This document shows, piece by piece, positions 1 to 7,095 of a stretch of 7,095 nt of DNA. This DNA comes from a virus. The notes beneath the pieces are model-generated. The model had not been told where the DNA came from, did not search any database, and saw only the letters and a list, made by a program, of their open reading frames with translations. Made by a program: the position numbers and the translations under genes. The stretch's first letter is position 1, and the number at the start of each line of letters is the position of its first letter. Where the stretch lies: the IMG/VR virus record IMGVR_UViG_3300008223_000003; one strand, given 5' to 3'.

Positions 1-123
1 ATTAATCTCCAGAAAAAAAAGGTTTTTTGCTATCAAAAAGATAAAAAGACGTTGATCAGGGCTATGAGGAAGTAATTTAATATCTAAATATGCGCCCATT
101 AGAGTTATGAGCGCTATAAGAAA
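1..123. repeat. Terminal direct repeat, copy 1 (identical to 6973-7095); signature of circular-contig overlap
   Basis: Base-by-base comparison shows attaatctccagaaaaaaaagg...gagcgctataagaaa identical at both window ends, with an offset of 6972. Confidence 0.95.
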
Positions 124-177
124 ACATTGGTAGCTAAGATCAAAAGAGGTTGATCATTCCTGCGGAATAAAAGCGGG

Positions 178-1365
178 TTAGTCTGCTAATGAAAGTTTTC
201 TAGTTACAGAATTAGATCCGCCTTCCGAACGATCGGGGGAGTCGCAAACCAAAAAATCCTCATATTCATTGTAAGTAATTCTAGCGCTGCAATCTGAATA
301 AACCTCGACATCATAACCAGCCTTAAAAAGATCATTGGAATCAATATCGAAAATAACTCTATTACGTTTAGAGGCTGAAATTTCTAAGCTATCAATGTAA
401 CGACCATTTCCAACTATTTTAGAGCGGCCTACGATATGAAGGCTGACTTTATCAAAGGGATGGCGTTCAAGATCAAAATCACTAGGCTGTGGTGCTGCAA
501 CTGGGGCAGGACTTGGGACAGGATTAGAATTGGGTTTTAAATTAGCAGGGTTATTATTAGAAGGAATGTGAGTCGATTGAATAGAGGGATTTTCAACAGG
601 TACAACTTTAGCCTCTGGAACTTCAACGGGACTGGTAGAAAACATGCGATTGAATATGAATATGAGAAGCAGAACCGCAAAACCTAAAACAAATATGATA
701 GGTTTTTTGTTAGGAAAGAAACCACCGCCTTTAAGATCTTCTAGCTTAGTTTCAGTAACAGAACTAGAGGACAAGGTATGCGAGCTGTAAAAATCAAAAT
801 ACGCGGGGTCATAATCTCTTGTTTCCTCAGAAATGAACTCAGCATTTCTAAACTGACATGAAGAATATACTTTTCTCTTATATTGTTTGTCATTACCAAC
901 AATACCAAGCTTGATTGTCCTGATAGCAATATCAGGCATTTTTCTAACAACTTTATCTAACTGACTCACATCTTGAGTGAGCAGTAAAATATCAAAGCCA
1001 TAGTGACCGTGCATTGCTAAAAACTTTTTTACTTCTGAAGTGCAGCCTTCACCAAAAACAAAGTGAGCCTCGTCAATAATAAAATAAGGGCCTTGATTAT
1101 TATCATTCTTCCAAGTGTGTCGAATAAAGTGATCTGGCGTTGAAAAATAATGATCGGTAGGCTTTCCAGTGAAATCCGAAAAATCGGATTCAACAACAAC
1201 AATTAAATCCCTAAGGTGTTCACCATAAACCGCGCAAATCCTATCAATATTGAGACTTAAATTTGTAACAACCATTCTATTTTTTTTAAGTTGCTCGATA
1301 GCATTATATCTAACTGCTTCATAACTTTTACCACTTCGAGTTCGCCCAACAATTGCATTTATCAT
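178..1365 (-). CDS. zot: pI/Zot-family phage assembly ATPase (zonular occludens toxin-like), 395 aa
   Basis: ATG start. Walker A GRTRSGKS at aa 7-14 and Walker B FIIDEAH. A single central TM segment (IIFVLGFAVLLLIFIF) precedes a periplasmic C-terminal domain. Its C-terminal block SNDLFKAGYDVEVYSDCSARIT resembles recalled M13 pI SDDLQKQGYSLTYIDLCTVSIK. It is the last gene of the morphogenesis module, as in Ff and CTXphi. Confidence 0.93.
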   Translation of the reverse strand: MINAIVGRTRSGKSYEAVRYNAIEQLKKNRMVVTNLSLNIDRICAVYGEHLRDLIVVVESDFSDFTGKPTDHYFSTPDHFIRHTWKNDNNQGPYFIIDEAHFVFGEGCTSEVKKFLAMHGHYGFDILLLTQDVSQLDKVVRKMPDIAIRTIKLGIVGNDKQYKRKVYSSCQFRNAEFISEETRDYDPAYFDFYSSHTLSSSSVTETKLEDLKGGGFFPNKKPIIFVLGFAVLLLIFIFNRMFSTSPVEVPEAKVVPVENPSIQSTHIPSNNNPANLKPNSNPVPSPAPVAAPQPSDFDLERHPFDKVSLHIVGRSKIVGNGRYIDSLEISASKRNRVIFDIDSNDLFKAGYDVEVYSDCSARITYNEYEDFLVCDSPDRSEGGSNSVTRKLSLAD

Positions 1366-1828: not shown

Positions 1829-3301
1829 TTAACCCCCTGTAACAATTTGACGGCAATAGATAGCACAGGTAAAAAGTAATATTGCTCTTAAAAATGCTAT
1901 TACAAAATCAGGAATAGTTACCTGATAACAACCAAAATTAGCAATACCAAAATCCAAACAGACCTCGCCAAAGCCAAGATCAAGAGAACCAGATATTTCA
2001 ACGTCCCACTCAGTGACGGAATTCATCAAAGCTGAATTCATTATTGAAGCCTCATTCCTAGACCAAACATCAGAAAAACCATTAGGAAATTCAGGAGTAT
2101 AAAACCCTGTGAGATCAGGAGAGGGCGTATAGGAAATTTCTGGAAGAGCTGGAGAATTATCGGTATCAGGACAGCCTTCACCTAAACGAATAATAGAACC
2201 ATCAGGACAAGCTAAAGGGCAGACGTCAGGAACATTATTATTTGGACCTTTTGGCGTAACACCATCAGAGCAATATTCAGTGGTATCAACATCAGCACAG
2301 ACGGGTCTAGAATCCCCCTCCTCACATTCAGCTAGAAGACGCTCAAAACCATCTTGTATGGACTCGTTTACAGTATCGACAGAATCAACAACCTCATCCA
2401 ACTTAGAACTATTTTTACTAGAAGATTCATCAACAGAATCTTTGATTTGATTTAATTTATTAATATTATTCGTATCAGAATTTTTCACAGAATCATTAAG
2501 TCTATCTAGTTTCTTTTCAACCCTAGAAAGATCAACCTTATCATTTTCTGTATTTGAATCTGTATTTGAATCTGTATTTGAATCTGTATTTGAATCTGTA
2601 TTTGAATCTGTATTTGAATCTGAATCTGTATTTGGGCCTGGTGCATCAGGATCTTCTATATTAGGCTCAGGATCAAAACAACCCTGAACTGTATTACCCT
2701 CTAGGTCTGTATATGTGCCACAATTTTTATCATCCTCGACGCAAGAATATTGATTATTCATATAACCACAGCCATCAGGTATAGATTCGCATTGACCTAA
2801 AGAATTTTTTTTCTTGCCTATGCCGCAATCCTTTTCATCCTTTGAGCGGTCTGAGTTTGGATTCAGATCTGTATTAATATTTTCACCAGTACACTCATTA
2901 AACTGCAATGTGCTAGGATCGTCGTCAATTCCTGTAGAGCATTGTGATTCGCCACCATTACTACTTCCACCACTGCCGCCACTACCACCACCGCTATCAC
3001 CTCCACCACCACCATCACCGCCCTGATCGCAATCATCACCAGCAACAAAAAAGGTAGAGCAATTAAACTTACCCTCCGTATATTCTTCGCAATCAGCAGA
3101 ATAAATAGTTCCATCAGTAACACTAGCTTTCAGTTCTTCAATACTAGCTAAGTAAAGATCAGGTCTAGAAGTGGAAGTATTGCCACCATACTGAGTAGCA
3201 TTCTGATAACCGCCCGGACATTCTTCGTCTAGAGTAGAATTTGAATTAGCGGAAAATAATAGAAGTGATACAAGCAGAAAAAATAATGATTTTAGATTCA
3301 T
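1829..3301 (-). CDS. pIII-like minor coat / host adsorption protein, 490 aa from the ATG
   Basis: The ORF track start (3313) is a GTG. The ATG at 3301 gives a classic signal peptide, MNLKSLFFLLVSLLLFSANS. The N-terminal part is Cys-rich. A Gly-rich linker GGDGGGGGDSGGGSGGSGGSSNGG is encoded at about 2951-3022, and an (SNTD)n repeat follows. The block KLDEVVDSVDTVNESIQDGFERLL resembles recalled Ff g3p KLDSVATDYGAAIDGFIGDV. There is a C-terminal Cys pair plus a hydrophobic anchor, FVIAFLRAILLFTCAIYC, as in Ff g3p. Confidence 0.85.
   Translation of the reverse strand: MNLKSLFFLLVSLLLFSANSNSTLDEECPGGYQNATQYGGNTSTSRPDLYLASIEELKASVTDGTIYSADCEEYTEGKFNCSTFFVAGDDCDQGGDGGGGGDSGGGSGGSGGSSNGGESQCSTGIDDDPSTLQFNECTGENINTDLNPNSDRSKDEKDCGIGKKKNSLGQCESIPDGCGYMNNQYSCVEDDKNCGTYTDLEGNTVQGCFDPEPNIEDPDAPGPNTDSDSNTDSNTDSNTDSNTDSNTDSNTENDKVDLSRVEKKLDRLNDSVKNSDTNNINKLNQIKDSVDESSSKNSSKLDEVVDSVDTVNESIQDGFERLLAECEEGDSRPVCADVDTTEYCSDGVTPKGPNNNVPDVCPLACPDGSIIRLGEGCPDTDNSPALPEISYTPSPDLTGFYTPEFPNGFSDVWSRNEASIMNSALMNSVTEWDVEISGSLDLGFGEVCLDFGIANFGCYQVTIPDFVIAFLRAILLFTCAIYCRQIVTGG
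2547..2636 (-). repeat. 12-bp in-frame tandem repeat (tctgtatttgaa x6 perfect, then degenerate units) inside the pIII-like gene
   Basis: Six perfect units span 2547-2618, followed by tctgaa and tctgtatttggg. On the minus strand they encode DSDSNTDSNTDSNTDSNTDSNTDSNTEN. Confidence 0.95.
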
Positions 3302-3743: not shown

Positions 3744-3983
3744 CTAAATCATTTTTATAAAGTTAGTTGCGGTTCTAATTTTAAAACCAGCAAAGGCCAA
3801 AGAGAAGATCACAATAAAGGTTCCAGAGAAAGCCAGCATGTAATCATCCACAGTGTGACCACTTGCTAAATAATTCATTGAGTATTCAGCAGGTGATACC
3901 AAAACAACCCCAGTACATTCGTTGACCGGAATTGTATTTGATTTTACATATCCATTTGTATCAATCGAGGCACAAAGAGCCAT
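3744..3983 (-). CDS. 79-aa small membrane protein between the ssDNA-binding and coat genes (position of Ff pVII/pIX or CTXphi Psh)
   Basis: Its ATG overlaps the upstream stop (TAATG). It has a C-terminal TM segment, FSGTFIVIFSLAFAGF. The function is inferred from position only. Confidence 0.6.
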   Translation of the reverse strand: MALCASIDTNGYVKSNTIPVNECTGVVLVSPAEYSMNYLASGHTVDDYMLAFSGTFIVIFSLAFAGFKIRTATNFIKMI

Positions 3984-4267
3984 TACACAAGTGGAGCCAG
4001 ATGATCATGTAGATCAAAAGGACTTAAATCAGGTTTGTCATATTTGCCGCGAACAATGGCGGAAGGCTTTAGATAATATTTGCCAATGGTAAAAGGCTTA
4101 TCCTTTTCAATGCCGACACGAACACGTTCAGGGAAGGCACCACCAGTGTGGACAAACAAATCTTGAGAGTAATTTGTCTTTTCACCAAATGTTTTCTCAT
4201 GAACTTGGTCATGACCAGAAACACACTCAAAAACAATTGCTAGAGATTCAGGTAATTTTGCAGACAT
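3983..4267 (-). CDS. gpV-like ssDNA-binding protein, 94 aa
   Basis: It lies immediately downstream of rep (TAA-C-ATG) with an AGGA Shine-Dalgarno. Size and pattern (YSQDLFVHTGGAFPERVRVGIEKDKPFTIGKYYLKPSAI) parallel recalled M13 gpV (YSLNEQLCYVDLGNEYPVLVKITLDEGQPAYAPGLYTVHLSSF). Confidence 0.75.
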   Translation of the reverse strand: MSAKLPESLAIVFECVSGHDQVHEKTFGEKTNYSQDLFVHTGGAFPERVRVGIEKDKPFTIGKYYLKPSAIVRGKYDKPDLSPFDLHDHLAPLV

Positions 4268-4268
4268 G

Positions 4269-4673
4269 TTATACGATCCTTAACTGAGGTCTTTCAGTTT
4301 TATTAGTAATATTATTTAACATCGAAGCATCTAGGCCCGCCGCCATGCGGAGATCTGGAATTTGATAATTATCAGGGGTTTGATTTCCAAAATTGATAGT
4401 GATTTCACGAATCAAAGGAACTACATTTTCATCATTATTTTCAATTGACTGGATGAATGCTTTATTCAAACCGCACTCTAAAAGTGAAGTAACACGATCA
4501 TAAAATGTTCTAGGAGGAGTGTTATCTTTTACAAACTGATAACCCATAGATTTCAATTCAAAATAAAAGCCACGCGCAGAATTAGCACGACGTCGATTAA
4601 CTCGACCATTGGAACTTACAGTGACCAAGCACTTTTCAATCTGAGCTAGAATTGTTTTATCATCTGTTTTCAT
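4269..4673 (-). CDS. Candidate pX-like protein, a 134-aa in-frame internal initiation product of rep
   Basis: The internal ATG at 4673 (aa 323 of the track ORF, FEAFEGLTIMKTDDKTILAQIEKC) aligns with the recalled M13 pX start (FEGDSMNIYDDSAVLDAIQSK). GAAGG lies 10 nt upstream. Confidence 0.45.
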   Translation of the reverse strand: MKTDDKTILAQIEKCLVTVSSNGRVNRRRANSARGFYFELKSMGYQFVKDNTPPRTFYDRVTSLLECGLNKAFIQSIENNDENVVPLIREITINFGNQTPDNYQIPDLRMAAGLDASMLNNITNKTERPQLRIV

Positions 4674-5600
4674 AATCGTTAAACCTTCAAATGCTTCGAA
4701 TATTTTATCGAATGCTAAATGCCATAAATCTTGGATCGTACTTTTCTCACGATCTGAGCAATATTTAATAAATTTAAGCATGTTTGTGGGTATGCCACAG
4801 TCCCTTAATTTTCTTGCTTTGATTCTCCCCTCGAATCTTACCATTCCAGTGCAATAATCCTTTACTGAGTAAAGCGATTTCAACCTGTCTAGTGTTCGTT
4901 TTTGGAATTTTTTATCAAGCAATTTGAAGTTTTTCTTTTTCTTTATTTTTTCTAAATCAGATATTTCATTAAGTAGTTCGGGTAACTTTAAATAAGCGAC
5001 ACGAACAATATGGGAACCGCCAGAACGGCCAGCACTACCACCAAACGTATTCCAATAAACAGAAGTTTCAAAACTAGACCTAGATTTAATTTGACCGTTA
5101 GAAGTAGTTGATAACGCTTTGATACATTGTTCTGCAAGATGTTGATTTTCAAATCTAGCAAAGTAAGTGCAATCAATTTGCATTAATTCAGAGCGAAGAA
5201 CATCGAGATCATTAAACAAAGTCGGGTATGAATCTAACAAAGTTGCTAGCATTTCCAAAAATCCAACCTTTGGATCTTCAAAACCAAAAACATTGTGCCC
5301 TTGCAAAATTTTAGCTGGTGAACATTTAAGCATCACATGCGGGAAAGGATAGCCACCGTTACCTTTAGACATGACGCAAAAAGCAACACCAGAGAAAGAG
5401 CTGGCTAATGATTCGTAAGAGTGGGTTTCGTAAGAGGACGCAATAGAGCCGCAATCATCCCTAGAGCGAGTGCTGCGAGTTTCTAAGCCATCATGCAATA
5501 TATATTCATCAAACGAAGGTAAGACAGCGCTAGAGCGATCAGGTGCAAAGATGCACTTTTCGTCTTTAAACGGTATCCTTAGTTCAAGCTTATCTATCAT
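4269..5600 (-). CDS. gpII-type rolling-circle replication initiation endonuclease, 443 aa from the ATG
   Basis: The ORF track start at 5639 is a GTG with no RBS. The ATG at 5600 gives MIDKLELRIPF, compared with recalled M13 gpII MIDMLVLRLPF. Several blocks match recalled gpII: SPAKILQGHNVFG vs SPAKVLQGHNVFG, GMVRFEGRIKAR vs GLVRFEARIKTR, DLWHLAFDKIFEAFEG vs DLWSFSFSELFKAFEG, and NVVPLIREI vs NVVPLVRFI. Confidence 0.93.
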   Translation of the reverse strand: MIDKLELRIPFKDEKCIFAPDRSSAVLPSFDEYILHDGLETRSTRSRDDCGSIASSYETHSYESLASSFSGVAFCVMSKGNGGYPFPHVMLKCSPAKILQGHNVFGFEDPKVGFLEMLATLLDSYPTLFNDLDVLRSELMQIDCTYFARFENQHLAEQCIKALSTTSNGQIKSRSSFETSVYWNTFGGSAGRSGGSHIVRVAYLKLPELLNEISDLEKIKKKKNFKLLDKKFQKRTLDRLKSLYSVKDYCTGMVRFEGRIKARKLRDCGIPTNMLKFIKYCSDREKSTIQDLWHLAFDKIFEAFEGLTIMKTDDKTILAQIEKCLVTVSSNGRVNRRRANSARGFYFELKSMGYQFVKDNTPPRTFYDRVTSLLECGLNKAFIQSIENNDENVVPLIREITINFGNQTPDNYQIPDLRMAAGLDASMLNNITNKTERPQLRIV

Positions 5601-5660
5601 TATTCCATTATCCGTGAAGATGTTACGTAAATGTAACACTCAAATAACTAAGAAATCAAT
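5601..5660. promoter_or_regulatory. Divergent rep / repressor control region with nested palindromes (candidate operator)
   Basis: Only 60 bp separate the two start codons. It contains the 8-bp palindrome TTACGTAA (5623-5630) nested in GTTAC-N6-GTAAC (5622-5637). I could not place convincing -35/-10 hexamers by eye. Confidence 0.55.
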
Positions 5661-5861
5661 ATGAAAGCATTGAAATTAATAAAATACTTAAGAAATAAAG
5701 GTTTAGAAGGACAAGAGCTAGCAGAGGCAGCAGGAACCACAAGGGCTACAATATCGAGAATTGAAAGCGGTAAAATCGAAAAACTAAATATAAACATGCT
5801 TGAAAAAGCTGCTCATTTTTTAAACAAAACACCAGACGAACTACTGTCAGAAATCGAATAA
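5661..5861 (+). CDS. XRE/Cro-C1-type helix-turn-helix transcriptional regulator, 66 aa (phage repressor-like; positional analogue of CTXphi RstR)
   Basis: HTH signature LEGQELAEAAGTTRATISRIESGK. It is the only plus-strand gene and is transcribed divergently from rep. Confidence 0.88.
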   Translation: MKALKLIKYLRNKGLEGQELAEAAGTTRATISRIESGKIEKLNINMLEKAAHFLNKTPDELLSEIE

Positions 5862-5884: not shown

Positions 5885-5901
5885 GAACATTAAGTATGTT
5901 C
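5885..5901. promoter_or_regulatory. Perfect inverted repeat GAACAT-TAAGT-ATGTTC in the noncoding region
   Basis: Read directly from the sequence. It is a 6-bp arm with a 5-nt spacer, 24 nt after the regulator stop codon. The function is unknown; it could be a protein-binding site or an ssDNA hairpin. Confidence 0.4.
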
Positions 5902-5937
5902 AACCCCTGCGGGTTGTATCCCCGCAAGCGGGGCCCC
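5901..5937. other. GC-rich cluster of overlapping hairpins (candidate packaging signal or minus-strand origin structure)
   Basis: 27 of 37 bases are G+C in an AT-rich genome. The possible pairings are caaccc/gggttg (5901-5916), gcggg/cccgc (5909-5925), ccccg/cgggg (5920-5933) and the palindrome ggggcccc (5930-5937). No U-run follows on either strand, so it is not a typical terminator. Confidence 0.5.
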
Positions 5938-5975
5938 TCAACTCCTCGGCGCACCATATTCACCACAAAATAAGC

Positions 5976-6001
5976 TCAAACAGGGTAAAGATTCTGTTTG
6001 A
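5976..6001 (-). other. Candidate plus-strand origin nick-site hairpin, copy 1
   Basis: The minus strand reads TCAAACAG-AATCTTTACC-CTGTTTGA, an 8-bp stem with a 10-nt loop. The loop contains TCTTTA, as does the recalled Ff origin hairpin AGTCCAC-GTTCTTTAATA-GTGGACT, where gpII nicks at CTTT/AATA. The motif is on the gene-sense (presumed viral) strand, as in Ff. Confidence 0.5.
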
Positions 6002-6077
6002 CTGATTGTGAGGCTTACAAGGCATACTACGTACTTTAGCGTCGCCAAACTCCTAATCAATTCACCAAAAAATAAGC

Positions 6078-6103
6078 TCAAACAGGGTAAAGATTCTGTT
6101 TGA
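6078..6103 (-). other. Candidate plus-strand origin nick-site hairpin, copy 2
   Basis: Identical hairpin 102 bp from copy 1, within the second repeat unit. Confidence 0.5.
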
Positions 6104-6187
6104 CTGATTGTGAGGCTTACAAGGCATACTACGTACTTTAGCGTCGCCAAACTCCTAATCAGGACTACCAATAAAAAGCTATTCGCT

Positions 6188-6655
6188 TCATTTCGCCATC
6201 ATTTTTTTTGCCATCAATCTATTAAATCTTGAAGCGGTGCCTTTAAGTCCGAAAGAATTATCGTCAAGAAAGGATGTATCTTTGAAAAATAATTCAGAAC
6301 AAAAACCTCTCGAAATAAAAATGCCGTCATGATCAAAGTCTCTACCAAATATCTTTTTATATCTAACTTTTGACTCATAGCTATCATCGATAATAAACGG
6401 CATTTCAGGAATTGAACCAAACCAAGAAAAATCTTTAACCTCTTCGATCATTAAATAGTTAATCATGTAAGGGGCTAATGTTGGAGACTTCAAAGAGCTC
6501 ATTAATATAAAATCTGATGGCTCAATATCATATGACCAGACAAAAGAATCATCTTCAACACCTAAGCAATAAATTCTACAAGTATCATCATTGAGCAAAA
6601 CAGGACTTGGATTTGTTTTGCTATCGGTAAAGTCATATCCAATTATTTTAATCAT
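6188..6655 (-). CDS. 155-aa hypothetical cytoplasmic protein, downstream partner of the cargo pair
   Basis: AAGGGA lies 7 nt upstream of the ATG. The start overlaps the upstream gene stop by 8 nt (ATGATTAA). There is no signal peptide or TM segment. The protein is Asp-rich with a basic tail (RFNRLMAKKMMAK). I recognise no family motif. Confidence 0.75.
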   Translation of the reverse strand: MIKIIGYDFTDSKTNPSPVLLNDDTCRIYCLGVEDDSFVWSYDIEPSDFILMSSLKSPTLAPYMINYLMIEEVKDFSWFGSIPEMPFIIDDSYESKVRYKKIFGRDFDHDGIFISRGFCSELFFKDTSFLDDNSFGLKGTASRFNRLMAKKMMAK

Positions 6656-6923
6656 TTAAAAATCCCTTAATTTTATTTTCAAGTAATATTTTTTCAGAAA
6701 GAAGCTCTTTGAGTTCATTATAGTCAGCTTGTAAAGCTTCTAAATCACATTCTAATTCATATTTTGATTCTGTCTTATGCTGTGCCATTTGAAGCCACAT
6801 CACTATAGCGCTTGTGTCAGTTTTAAGATTCCAAGTCTTTTTTATATATTCCAAAGACTTTAGAGCCTCATTATGACTAGAAGTATTACCGTTAAGCCTT
6901 AAAGTTAGCGTTTTTGATGTCAT
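6648..6923 (-). CDS. 91-aa protein with a ribbon-helix-helix-like N-terminus and a coiled-coil-like C-terminus, upstream partner of the cargo pair
   Basis: AGGGA lies 7 nt upstream of the ATG. KTLTLRL looks like a beta strand, followed by helix-turn-helix-like segments (SSHNEALKSLEYIKKTW / TDTSAIVMWLQMAQ) in a CopG/Arc/ParD-like pattern. The C-terminus is heptad-like (LEALQADYNELKELLSEKILLENKIKGFL). The fold assignment comes from pattern reading only. Confidence 0.7.
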   Translation of the reverse strand: MTSKTLTLRLNGNTSSHNEALKSLEYIKKTWNLKTDTSAIVMWLQMAQHKTESKYELECDLEALQADYNELKELLSEKILLENKIKGFLND

Positions 6924-6972
6924 TTTGATGTCCCTGGGTTAGTTTAAATCGTTAATATGCTACCAAGATAAC

Positions 6973-7095
6973 ATTAATCTCCAGAAAAAAAAGGTTTTTT
7001 GCTATCAAAAAGATAAAAAGACGTTGATCAGGGCTATGAGGAAGTAATTTAATATCTAAATATGCGCCCATTAGAGTTATGAGCGCTATAAGAAA
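6973..7095. repeat. Terminal direct repeat, copy 2 (identical to 1-123)
   Basis: Same as copy 1. The window ends inside the repeat, as expected for a permuted circular assembly rather than att sites with host flanks. Confidence 0.95.

Follow-up and report, generated by a model that had tools for sequence, protein, structure and literature searches.

Filamentous phages change the behavior of their hosts mainly through small cargo genes, the classic case being cholera toxin. In Vibrio-type inoviruses, the cargo occupies a slot after the assembly gene (pI/Zot) and before the intergenic, att, and repressor region; CTXphi carries ctxAB there, and VGJphi carries its distinctive region. Here we analyze a pair of overlapping genes found in this slot in the inovirus genome of IMG/VR virus record IMGVR_UViG_3300008223_000003 (the window, which is the whole 7,095-nucleotide [nt] stretch of DNA that was analyzed). 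The pair spans positions 6188 to 6923 on the minus strand and encodes proteins of 91 and 155 amino acids (aa). With moderate confidence, we read it as a lineage-specific accessory ("moron") bicistron whose products would act together as a cytoplasmic binding or regulatory complex that benefits the carrier state. As in the Vibrio-type phages, the gene content of the slot differs between otherwise syntenic phages, but VGJphi, fs1, and the relatives described below have no open reading frame (ORF) similar in sequence to the pair.

Toxin-antitoxin (TA) modules of inoviruses, including PfiT/PfiA of Pf4, KKP of Pf6, and the 15 sets of Roux et al. 2019, resemble the pair in being accessory, in comprising at least two genes of a filamentous phage, and in having a small first gene that overlaps a larger second one. 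The known inovirus toxins belong to recognizable families, PfiT being of the ParE/RelE type and KKP consisting of Ser/Thr kinases. The pair differs from these modules in that it belongs to no recognizable family, its larger protein is acidic, and it has no homolog elsewhere. Both TA cargo and exclusion genes have been described in inoviruses (PMC6813254; PMC12328805), and inoviruses carry many uncharacterized singleton genes, with superinfection exclusion conferred by 2 of 10 tested hypothetical inovirus proteins (PMC6813254). Since such cargo is documented, either outcome would add to a known class and would not establish a new type of system. The pair is an ordinary kind of element, an inovirus moron cassette, made of new orphan proteins. 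A cargo pair without relatives may well serve a new function in interfering with the host or with phages, for which it is a candidate; its immediate value is modest, as it is one more orphan moron in a singleton-rich class, and no specific mechanism is indicated.

The pair is absent from close relatives with the same gene order

The window is a circular genome of 6,972 bp net, since bases 1 to 123 are repeated identically at 6973 to 7095. All phage genes lie on the minus strand, with the sole exception of a 66-aa HTH_3 repressor (5661 to 5861, plus strand). The minus strand carries gII, the gV-like gene, a 79-aa ORF, pVIII, a 30-aa ORF, pIII, pVI, pI/Zot, and then the pair, an order that agrees with the original prediction, which had been made from the sequence alone. 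Two copies of a 102-bp repeat and a set of hairpins follow. The pair thus shares the strand of the other phage coding sequences, with gI/zot on one side and the intergenic/regulatory region on the other.

Relatives were recovered by gII and Zot searches, and three of them are complete circular genomes with terminal overlaps:

L011, net 5,844 bp, gII 79% identical to that of the window
L012, net 6,169 bp, gII 75% identical and Zot 69% identical
L013, net 6,070 bp, gII 72% identical

The same divergent repressor is present in all three. Between zot and the repressor, these genomes have 230 bp (L011), 514 bp (L012), and 219 bp (L013) of noncoding DNA, compared with 1,288 bp in the window, and the whole genomes measure 5.8 to 6.2 kb versus 6.97 kb. 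Using tblastn and phmmer, we found no trace of either cassette protein in L011, L012, or L013. More distant relatives have other contents in the post-zot slot, namely, a 237-aa PEP-CTERM protein with a signal peptide in L008 (2632 to 3345) and two small overlapping ORFs in L009, and the VGJphi record annotates its "distinctive region" at the same position. The absence of the pair from close syntenic relatives, together with the different cargo of distant ones, supports the reading of this site as a cargo slot. The earlier placement of the pair in a position equivalent to that of ctxAB is thus borne out, and the comparison shows the pair to be accessory. The window lineage and these three relatives form a clean natural with/without set.

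Neither cassette protein has a transmembrane segment or a signal peptide. They differ in this from CtxAB, which carries signal peptides, and the lack of a signal peptide on either protein indicates that the pair is not a secreted toxin. The same comparison bears on the idea that the pair serves a core inovirus function, for example, as a divergent assembly or replication accessory protein. The pair is indeed co-oriented with the morphogenesis genes and directly follows them, yet it is missing from L011, L012, and L013, which are complete and possess every other gene, it resembles no PHROG or Pfam inovirus family, and its products lack the membrane segments and signal peptides looked for. We consider a core function scarcely credible.

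The relatives are modular mosaics. In L011 and L013, gII (79% and 72%, respectively) and the repressor gene (84% and 65%) are shared with the window, but Zot is only about 23% identical; L012 shares both the gII/repressor and the Zot modules. The PEP-CTERM cargo of L008 could alter the surface of the host.

Both genes are intact and under purifying selection

The elements of the cassette are as follows:

6648 to 6923, minus strand, ORF of the 91-aa gene
6188 to 6655, minus strand, ORF of the 155-aa gene
6648 to 6655, minus strand, 8-nt stop/start overlap ATGATTAA (91-aa stop at 6650 to 6648, 155-aa ATG at 6655 to 6653)
6931 to 6935, minus strand, Shine-Dalgarno AGGGA of the 91-aa gene, 7 nt from the ATG
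6663 to 6667, minus strand, Shine-Dalgarno AGGGA of the 155-aa gene, 7 nt from the ATG and inside the 3' end of the 91-aa gene

The co-directional arrangement, the 8-nt overlap, and the AGGGA motif 7 nt from each ATG are all as first described. Each ORF begins at the first possible start codon of its own frame. On the coding strand, AGGGA is found at just 5 places in the entire genome, and the two Shine-Dalgarno sites of the pair are the strongest of any gene in the genome, with no core gene having one as good. These features were compared with those of L001, which also carries the pair. The overlap ATGATTAA is identical in L001, and both Shine-Dalgarno sites are altered but kept (AGGTG at the same distance for the 91-aa gene and AAGGAA for the 155-aa gene).

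The earlier claim that the genes are real is supported by several lines of evidence. When the 736-nt region was shuffled 5,000 times at its GC content of 31%, no shuffle contained an ATG-initiated ORF of at least 155 codons and 13 contained one of at least 91 codons. Both ORFs are intact on 6 independent contigs from ENA, JGI, and Logan assemblies and in the window itself, which together represent at least 6 samples. The source samples include ERZ511469, SRR5469066/68, SRR19733687, and JGI 3300008249 and 3300025397. Measured against the 86%-identical L001 variant (P0003), the 91-aa gene has a ratio of nonsynonymous to synonymous substitution rates (dN/dS) of 0.38 at a dS of 0.18; in the same window/L001 comparison, the dN/dS of zot is 0.075. 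These data show that both cassette genes are intact and under purifying selection. The earlier claim of coupling stands in part: the overlap is seen directly, and translational coupling is a plausible consequence of it. Two adjacent, co-directional, small overlapping genes, presumably on a single transcript, also have the gene order of a type II TA module.

A neutral insertion that hitchhikes with the phage, is expressed little or not at all, and is decaying would account for an orphan confined to one lineage, for the relaxed constraint on the 91-aa gene relative to zot, and for a homopolymer frameshift that alters the C terminus of the 155-aa protein in L001. Against this stand the intact ORFs in every contig, a dN/dS below 1, Shine-Dalgarno sites that persist despite sequence turnover, and the failure of a 155-codon ORF to arise by shuffling. 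In addition, a 10% increase in genome length would be unlikely to be neutral in a length-constrained filament. Taken together, this explanation is very unlikely. A foreign base composition of the pair was also considered and rejected, as its GC contents at third codon positions (0.23 and 0.28) are within the core-gene range of 0.22 to 0.33.

Neither protein matches a family outside this phage lineage

Searches of Pfam, PHROGs, NCBIfam, and PADLOC assigned no family to either protein, the only match being a nonsignificant one to BrxC (E = 0.004, 12.8 bits). In a word index of 5.8 billion proteins, the 155-aa protein matched only itself, and the 91-aa protein matched only itself and one variant with 86% identity. 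Matches in a sequence search of the PDB had E values above 0.8 for both proteins, no significant match to either was obtained by tblastn in phage and plasmid records, and IMG/VR scans for either protein found nothing. An exhaustive search of 1.84 billion representatives covered the 155-aa protein only and is described below. By these searches, both proteins are orphans with no family outside this phage lineage. The original prediction had proposed checking whether the pair co-occurs outside inoviruses, and no other genomic context emerged from the protein index, plasmids, or IMG/VR. Recurrence in unrelated contexts, which is typical of TA modules though not strictly defining, was not seen either; in the collections searched, the pair is confined to this phage lineage.

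The 91-aa protein is modeled as a long helix with a small basic head

The 91-aa protein has a split charge, with an isoelectric point of 9.9 for residues 1 to 50 and of 4.4 for residues 51 to 91. Its C-terminal half resembles a leucine zipper, with hydrophobic residues spaced 3 to 4 apart from L57 to L89. The AlphaFold 2 model, which has a mean predicted local distance difference test (pLDDT) value of 80.6, contains helices at residues 3 to 10, 14 to 31, and 37 to 90. A last helix of 54 residues implies oligomerization, and the product is most likely, on the basis of this model, an oligomeric coiled coil with a small basic helical head.

The original prediction had described this protein as a DNA binder like those of the ribbon-helix-helix (RHH) class. 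By eye, the segment KTLTLRLN does resemble the CopG or NikR strand. The protein is also comparable to Mnt of phage P22, an 82-aa RHH protein with a tetramerizing coiled coil, in its size and in having a basic N-terminal region followed by a long amphipathic helix. However, no sequence similarity to Mnt or to other RHH proteins was detectable, and the N terminus is modeled as a helix. The 91-aa protein matched no Pfam RHH family at an E value of ≤1 and had no NCBIfam match, and hhalign against an RHH alignment returned a probability of 0.15%. Smith-Waterman z-scores against 11 RHH proteins ranged from −1.7 to 1.7, that is, about 0 as for Mnt, and with an RHH hidden Markov model (HMM), the true sequence ranked 164th of 501 against its shuffles. 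These comparisons serve as a check and not as a formal test. Using Foldseek with the model, we found no related or DNA-binding fold (best E values of 1.3 in the PDB and 0.49 in BFVD). An RHH identity was rejected, since the sequence tests are at chance level and residues 3 to 10 are modeled as a helix and not as a strand, in a monomer model that is blind to folds formed only in the RHH dimer. No recognized antitoxin DNA-binding domain (RHH, HTH, AbrB, or Phd/YefM) was found in this protein, and the description of it as RHH-like is not supported.

These results also bear on the possibility that the pair serves to regulate the phage that carries it. In that case, the 91-aa protein would be a transcription factor or an antirepressor similar to RstC or Mnt, with the repressor/gII switch or the nearby 102-bp repeats as its target and the 155-aa protein as its cofactor. 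The pair does adjoin the intergenic/repressor region, a basic head with a coiled-coil tail recalls small oligomeric phage regulators, and the 5' untranslated region (UTR) and residues 13 to 15 of the N-terminal loop vary between lineages. Yet the pair is dispensable in close relatives whose repressor and gII modules are the same, no DNA-binding fold or family was detected by the searches above, and a lack of constraint explains the variability of the UTR more simply. We judge a regulatory role to be unlikely.

The 155-aa protein contains one unit resembling a propeller blade

The 155-aa protein is soluble and acidic, with an isoelectric point of 4.8, and like its partner lacks a signal peptide or membrane segment. 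In the exhaustive phmmer search, it matched only itself and multirepeat proteins with units of about 46 aa that correspond to its residues ~5 to 60; the large summed E values of these repeat proteins arise from many weak repeats. According to Pfam and NCBIfam, the matched proteins are mostly beta-propellers of the lactonase/SGL or PQQ type, one of which also carries a fused phage tail-tube domain. With an HMM built from 91 blade units, the 155-aa protein scored 14.7 bits, compared with a maximum of 9.5 bits in 2,000 shuffles. The single scoring unit covers residues 10 to 46 (TDSKTNPSPVLLNDDTCRIYCLGVEDDSFVWSYDIEP, 13.9 bits), and BLAST suggests a weak second unit at residues 60 to 99. The lactonase/SGL-type proteins (P0004 to P0018), which align with residues 10 to 46 through one unit of about 46 aa, are built of 4 to 18 units in tandem, and many of them are large proteins of a surface or tail, whereas the cytoplasmic 155-aa protein has one scoring unit. 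The resemblance to a blade unit is real, though chosen post hoc, yet a single blade does not make a propeller, and the 155-aa protein does not have the four or more tandem units that close one. The protein is probably beta-rich.

A match of residues 64 to 128 to the CARDB/fn3 surface protein P0017 was set aside, as it is weak and lies outside the recognized CARDB/fn3 domains of that protein.

With both proteins described, the pair can be weighed as a type II TA module, in which the antitoxin, a DNA-binding autorepressor, would be the 91-aa protein and the 155-aa protein would act as a new toxin. The order of a small and then a larger gene, the 8-nt overlap, and the location on a mobile element all fit such a module, as do the basic N-terminal and acidic C-terminal halves of the 91-aa protein, which are found in many antitoxins. 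TA cargo is documented in inoviruses, with 15 putative sets in 181 genomes (PMC6813254), and PfiAT and KKP are known in Pf phages. However, Pfam, NCBIfam, and PADLOC returned no toxin, antitoxin, or defense family; the RHH tests were negative, and Foldseek gave no DNA-binding fold. The candidate toxin is acidic and has no nuclease, kinase, or acetyltransferase signature, and its sequence places it in none of the known toxin superfamilies (RelE/ParE, MazF/CcdB, VapC, Doc/Fic, HipA, GNAT, or zeta). In its acidity, its probable beta-rich makeup, and its one blade-like motif, it is unlike known type II toxins. TA modules are also typically promiscuous, whereas no second genomic context of the pair turned up in protein collections, plasmids, or IMG/VR. 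The TA interpretation put forward originally is weakened but not refuted by these findings, which leave it with gene order and charge pattern but with no toxin or antitoxin family and with an acidic 155-aa protein. We now regard it as improbable.

The two genes have different recent histories

Across pIII, pVI, zot, the spacer, and the 91-aa gene, L001 diverges from the window by about 7%. The two sequences are nearly identical from about position 6660 onward, and the 155-aa gene has 3 substitutions and 1 homopolymer indel where about 32 differences would be expected (Poisson P = 5e-10). Its dS is 0.0115 (window 6188 to 6660 versus L001 2714 to 3238). The drop in divergence at about 6660 indicates that recombination broke the sequence close to where the two cassette genes meet. 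The 155-aa gene was recently exchanged between lineages, probably along with the adjacent origin-side DNA, and the morphogenesis side kept its own 91-aa gene.

The 91-aa protein is 86% identical in L001, with 13 substitutions, 9 of which fall in the C-terminal coiled-coil half and include charge changes. Among the first 151 residues of the 155-aa protein, only two differ. Nine changes in the coiled-coil tail without a compensating change in the partner are a further point against a TA module.

The remaining difference in the 155-aa gene is at its 3' end:

6202 to 6209, minus strand, A8 homopolymer, which is A9 in L001

The A9 of L001 shifts the frame, such that the last 4 residues are replaced by a 12-residue tail (163 aa versus 155 aa). 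This difference could be true variation or a sequencing error.

Much of the spacer upstream of the pair is ancestral

The spacer between zot and the 91-aa gene comprises 49 + 177 = 226 bp across the circle junction. This spacer and the opposite boundary of the cassette consist of the following:

6924 to 6972, minus strand, proximal spacer/5' UTR, hypervariable from lineage to lineage over the ~30 nt that precede the ATG (L001 alignment)
1 to 177, minus strand, distal spacer directly after the zot stop, ancestral intergenic DNA of which bases 1 to 123 recur at 6973 to 7095
5958 to 6161, no strand assigned, two tandem 102-bp repeats (perfect or near-perfect) directly downstream of the cassette, forming the origin-side insertion boundary

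The distal spacer contains a hairpin (114 to 92), GGGCGCATA (97 to 89), and TAGCCCTGATCAACG (64 to 50), all on the minus strand and with the repeated copy at 7022 to 7086. A post-zot block made up of the hairpin at 114 to 92, GGGCGCATA, and TAGCCCTGATCAACG.CTTTT is common to L011 and L012. Since these relatives lack the cassette, much of the 226-bp spacer is ancestral and was not brought in by the cassette. In L001, the 5' UTR around the first Shine-Dalgarno site is almost completely turned over.

The spacer had been taken to imply a promoter of the pair's own. Consensus scans of the coding strand over 6924 to 7095 and 1 to 177 revealed no sigma-70-like promoter and no terminator, although such scans are weak evidence, and part of the spacer is kept in relatives without the cassette. 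The implication of a dedicated promoter is therefore not supported, and within the limits of these scans, the pair is not flanked by the promoter and terminator of a classical moron. Because no promoter or terminator was found between zot and the pair, read-through is the simplest account of its transcription.

The post-zot element could be an attP site, a packaging signal, or a minus-strand origin. GGGCGCATA matches the XerC arm of dif at 8 of 10 positions; a dif-like attP reading was rejected, as neither the spacing nor the XerD arm fits or is conserved.

The 102-bp repeat may be an origin or operator element. It is present as a single copy in the ENA contig L002, and its copy number is either polymorphic or collapsed by assembly. 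In L012, which has no cassette, 41 nt of the unit are 95% conserved. Farther downstream on the minus strand (5885 to 5945), the GC-rich hairpins CCCCGCTTGCGGGG and AACCCGCAGGGGTT adjoin the palindrome GAACATACTTAATGTTC, which is located where the repressor gene ends (3' side). All of L011, L012, and L013 conserve the palindrome block, and the region folds with a z-score of −2.8, making these hairpins a candidate bidirectional terminator or origin hairpin.

Proposed role of the pair

On the reading that we prefer, that of an accessory bicistron with co-acting products, the cassette would have been inserted into the intergenic region of a repressor-carrying inovirus with an Ff-type gII, at a point flanked by the ancestral post-zot element and by the repeats and hairpins of the origin side. 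Most of its transcription would come from the gIII-gVI-gI morphogenesis operon by read-through or else start at a weak nonconsensus promoter. Translation of the second gene would be coupled to that of the first, such that both proteins are made together. The 155-aa product would be an acidic, cytoplasmic, and probably beta-rich protein with a blade-like binding motif, acting with the coiled-coil 91-aa protein. Our best guess is that the pair benefits the carrier state, for example, by interfering with a host process or with competing phages (host manipulation or superinfection exclusion), and that its products are not a toxin and its antidote.

Several observations weigh against this reading. 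The blade-like motif is a single weak unit that was chosen post hoc after a database-wide search, and the AlphaFold 2 model of the 155-aa protein is unusable (pLDDT of 35.6), with hints of strands only. The contrast in substitutions between the two proteins argues weakly against a tightly coevolving interface, and a breakpoint at their junction suggests that the two genes are not one indivisible evolutionary unit. Function, complex formation, and read-through transcription are all reached by inference.

A more novel reading would make the pair a previously unseen two-component TA/addiction, exclusion, or antidefense module of an episomal marine-type inovirus, with an effector that has a blade-like fold without relatives and a small coiled-coil partner that holds or delivers it, spread by recombination. 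The spread is suggested by a nearly identical 155-aa gene in two backbones that are about 7% apart. We consider the proposal as a whole distinctly unlikely.

Other features of the genome

Three further genes of the window were assigned by Pfam and PHROGs:

4269 to 5639, minus strand, G2P/Phage_CRI replication protein (gII)
3983 to 4267, minus strand, gV-like single-stranded DNA-binding protein
178 to 1365, minus strand, Zot/pI assembly ATPase

The ORFs between the gV-like gene and zot encode products of 79 aa, 82 aa (pVIII), 30 aa, and 494 aa (pIII), followed by pVI, and match inovirus coat proteins in size and order. The replication protein is nearest to Ff gII (34.7% identity), and Zot has about 30% identity with its counterparts in the Vibrio phages fs1, VEJ, and VGJ, which are assembly proteins. 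Deposited phages had no match to the window at the DNA level, and Rfam returned no RNA family in it. A first genome scan with Zot for a host prophage found nothing. A second scan yielded only two contigs of metagenome-assembled genomes, labeled Flavobacteriales and Patescibacteria, with a Zot that is 38 to 39% identical, and no host was assignable.

The start of gII is ambiguous. The longest ORF begins at a GTG at 5639 without a Shine-Dalgarno site, the G2P homology begins at residue 14, and the gene call in L002 (at 3057) gives a gII of 443 aa, consistent with an internal ATG 13 codons downstream. The pIII gene contains two repeats: a 12-nt tandem repeat in 7 overlapping copies (2535 to 2642), which encodes an (SNTD)n-type linker, and a repeat with a 9-nt period (2958 to 3017), which encodes a Gly/Ser-rich linker. 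At the equivalent place, pIII of L012 has a different repeat, GGGDS.

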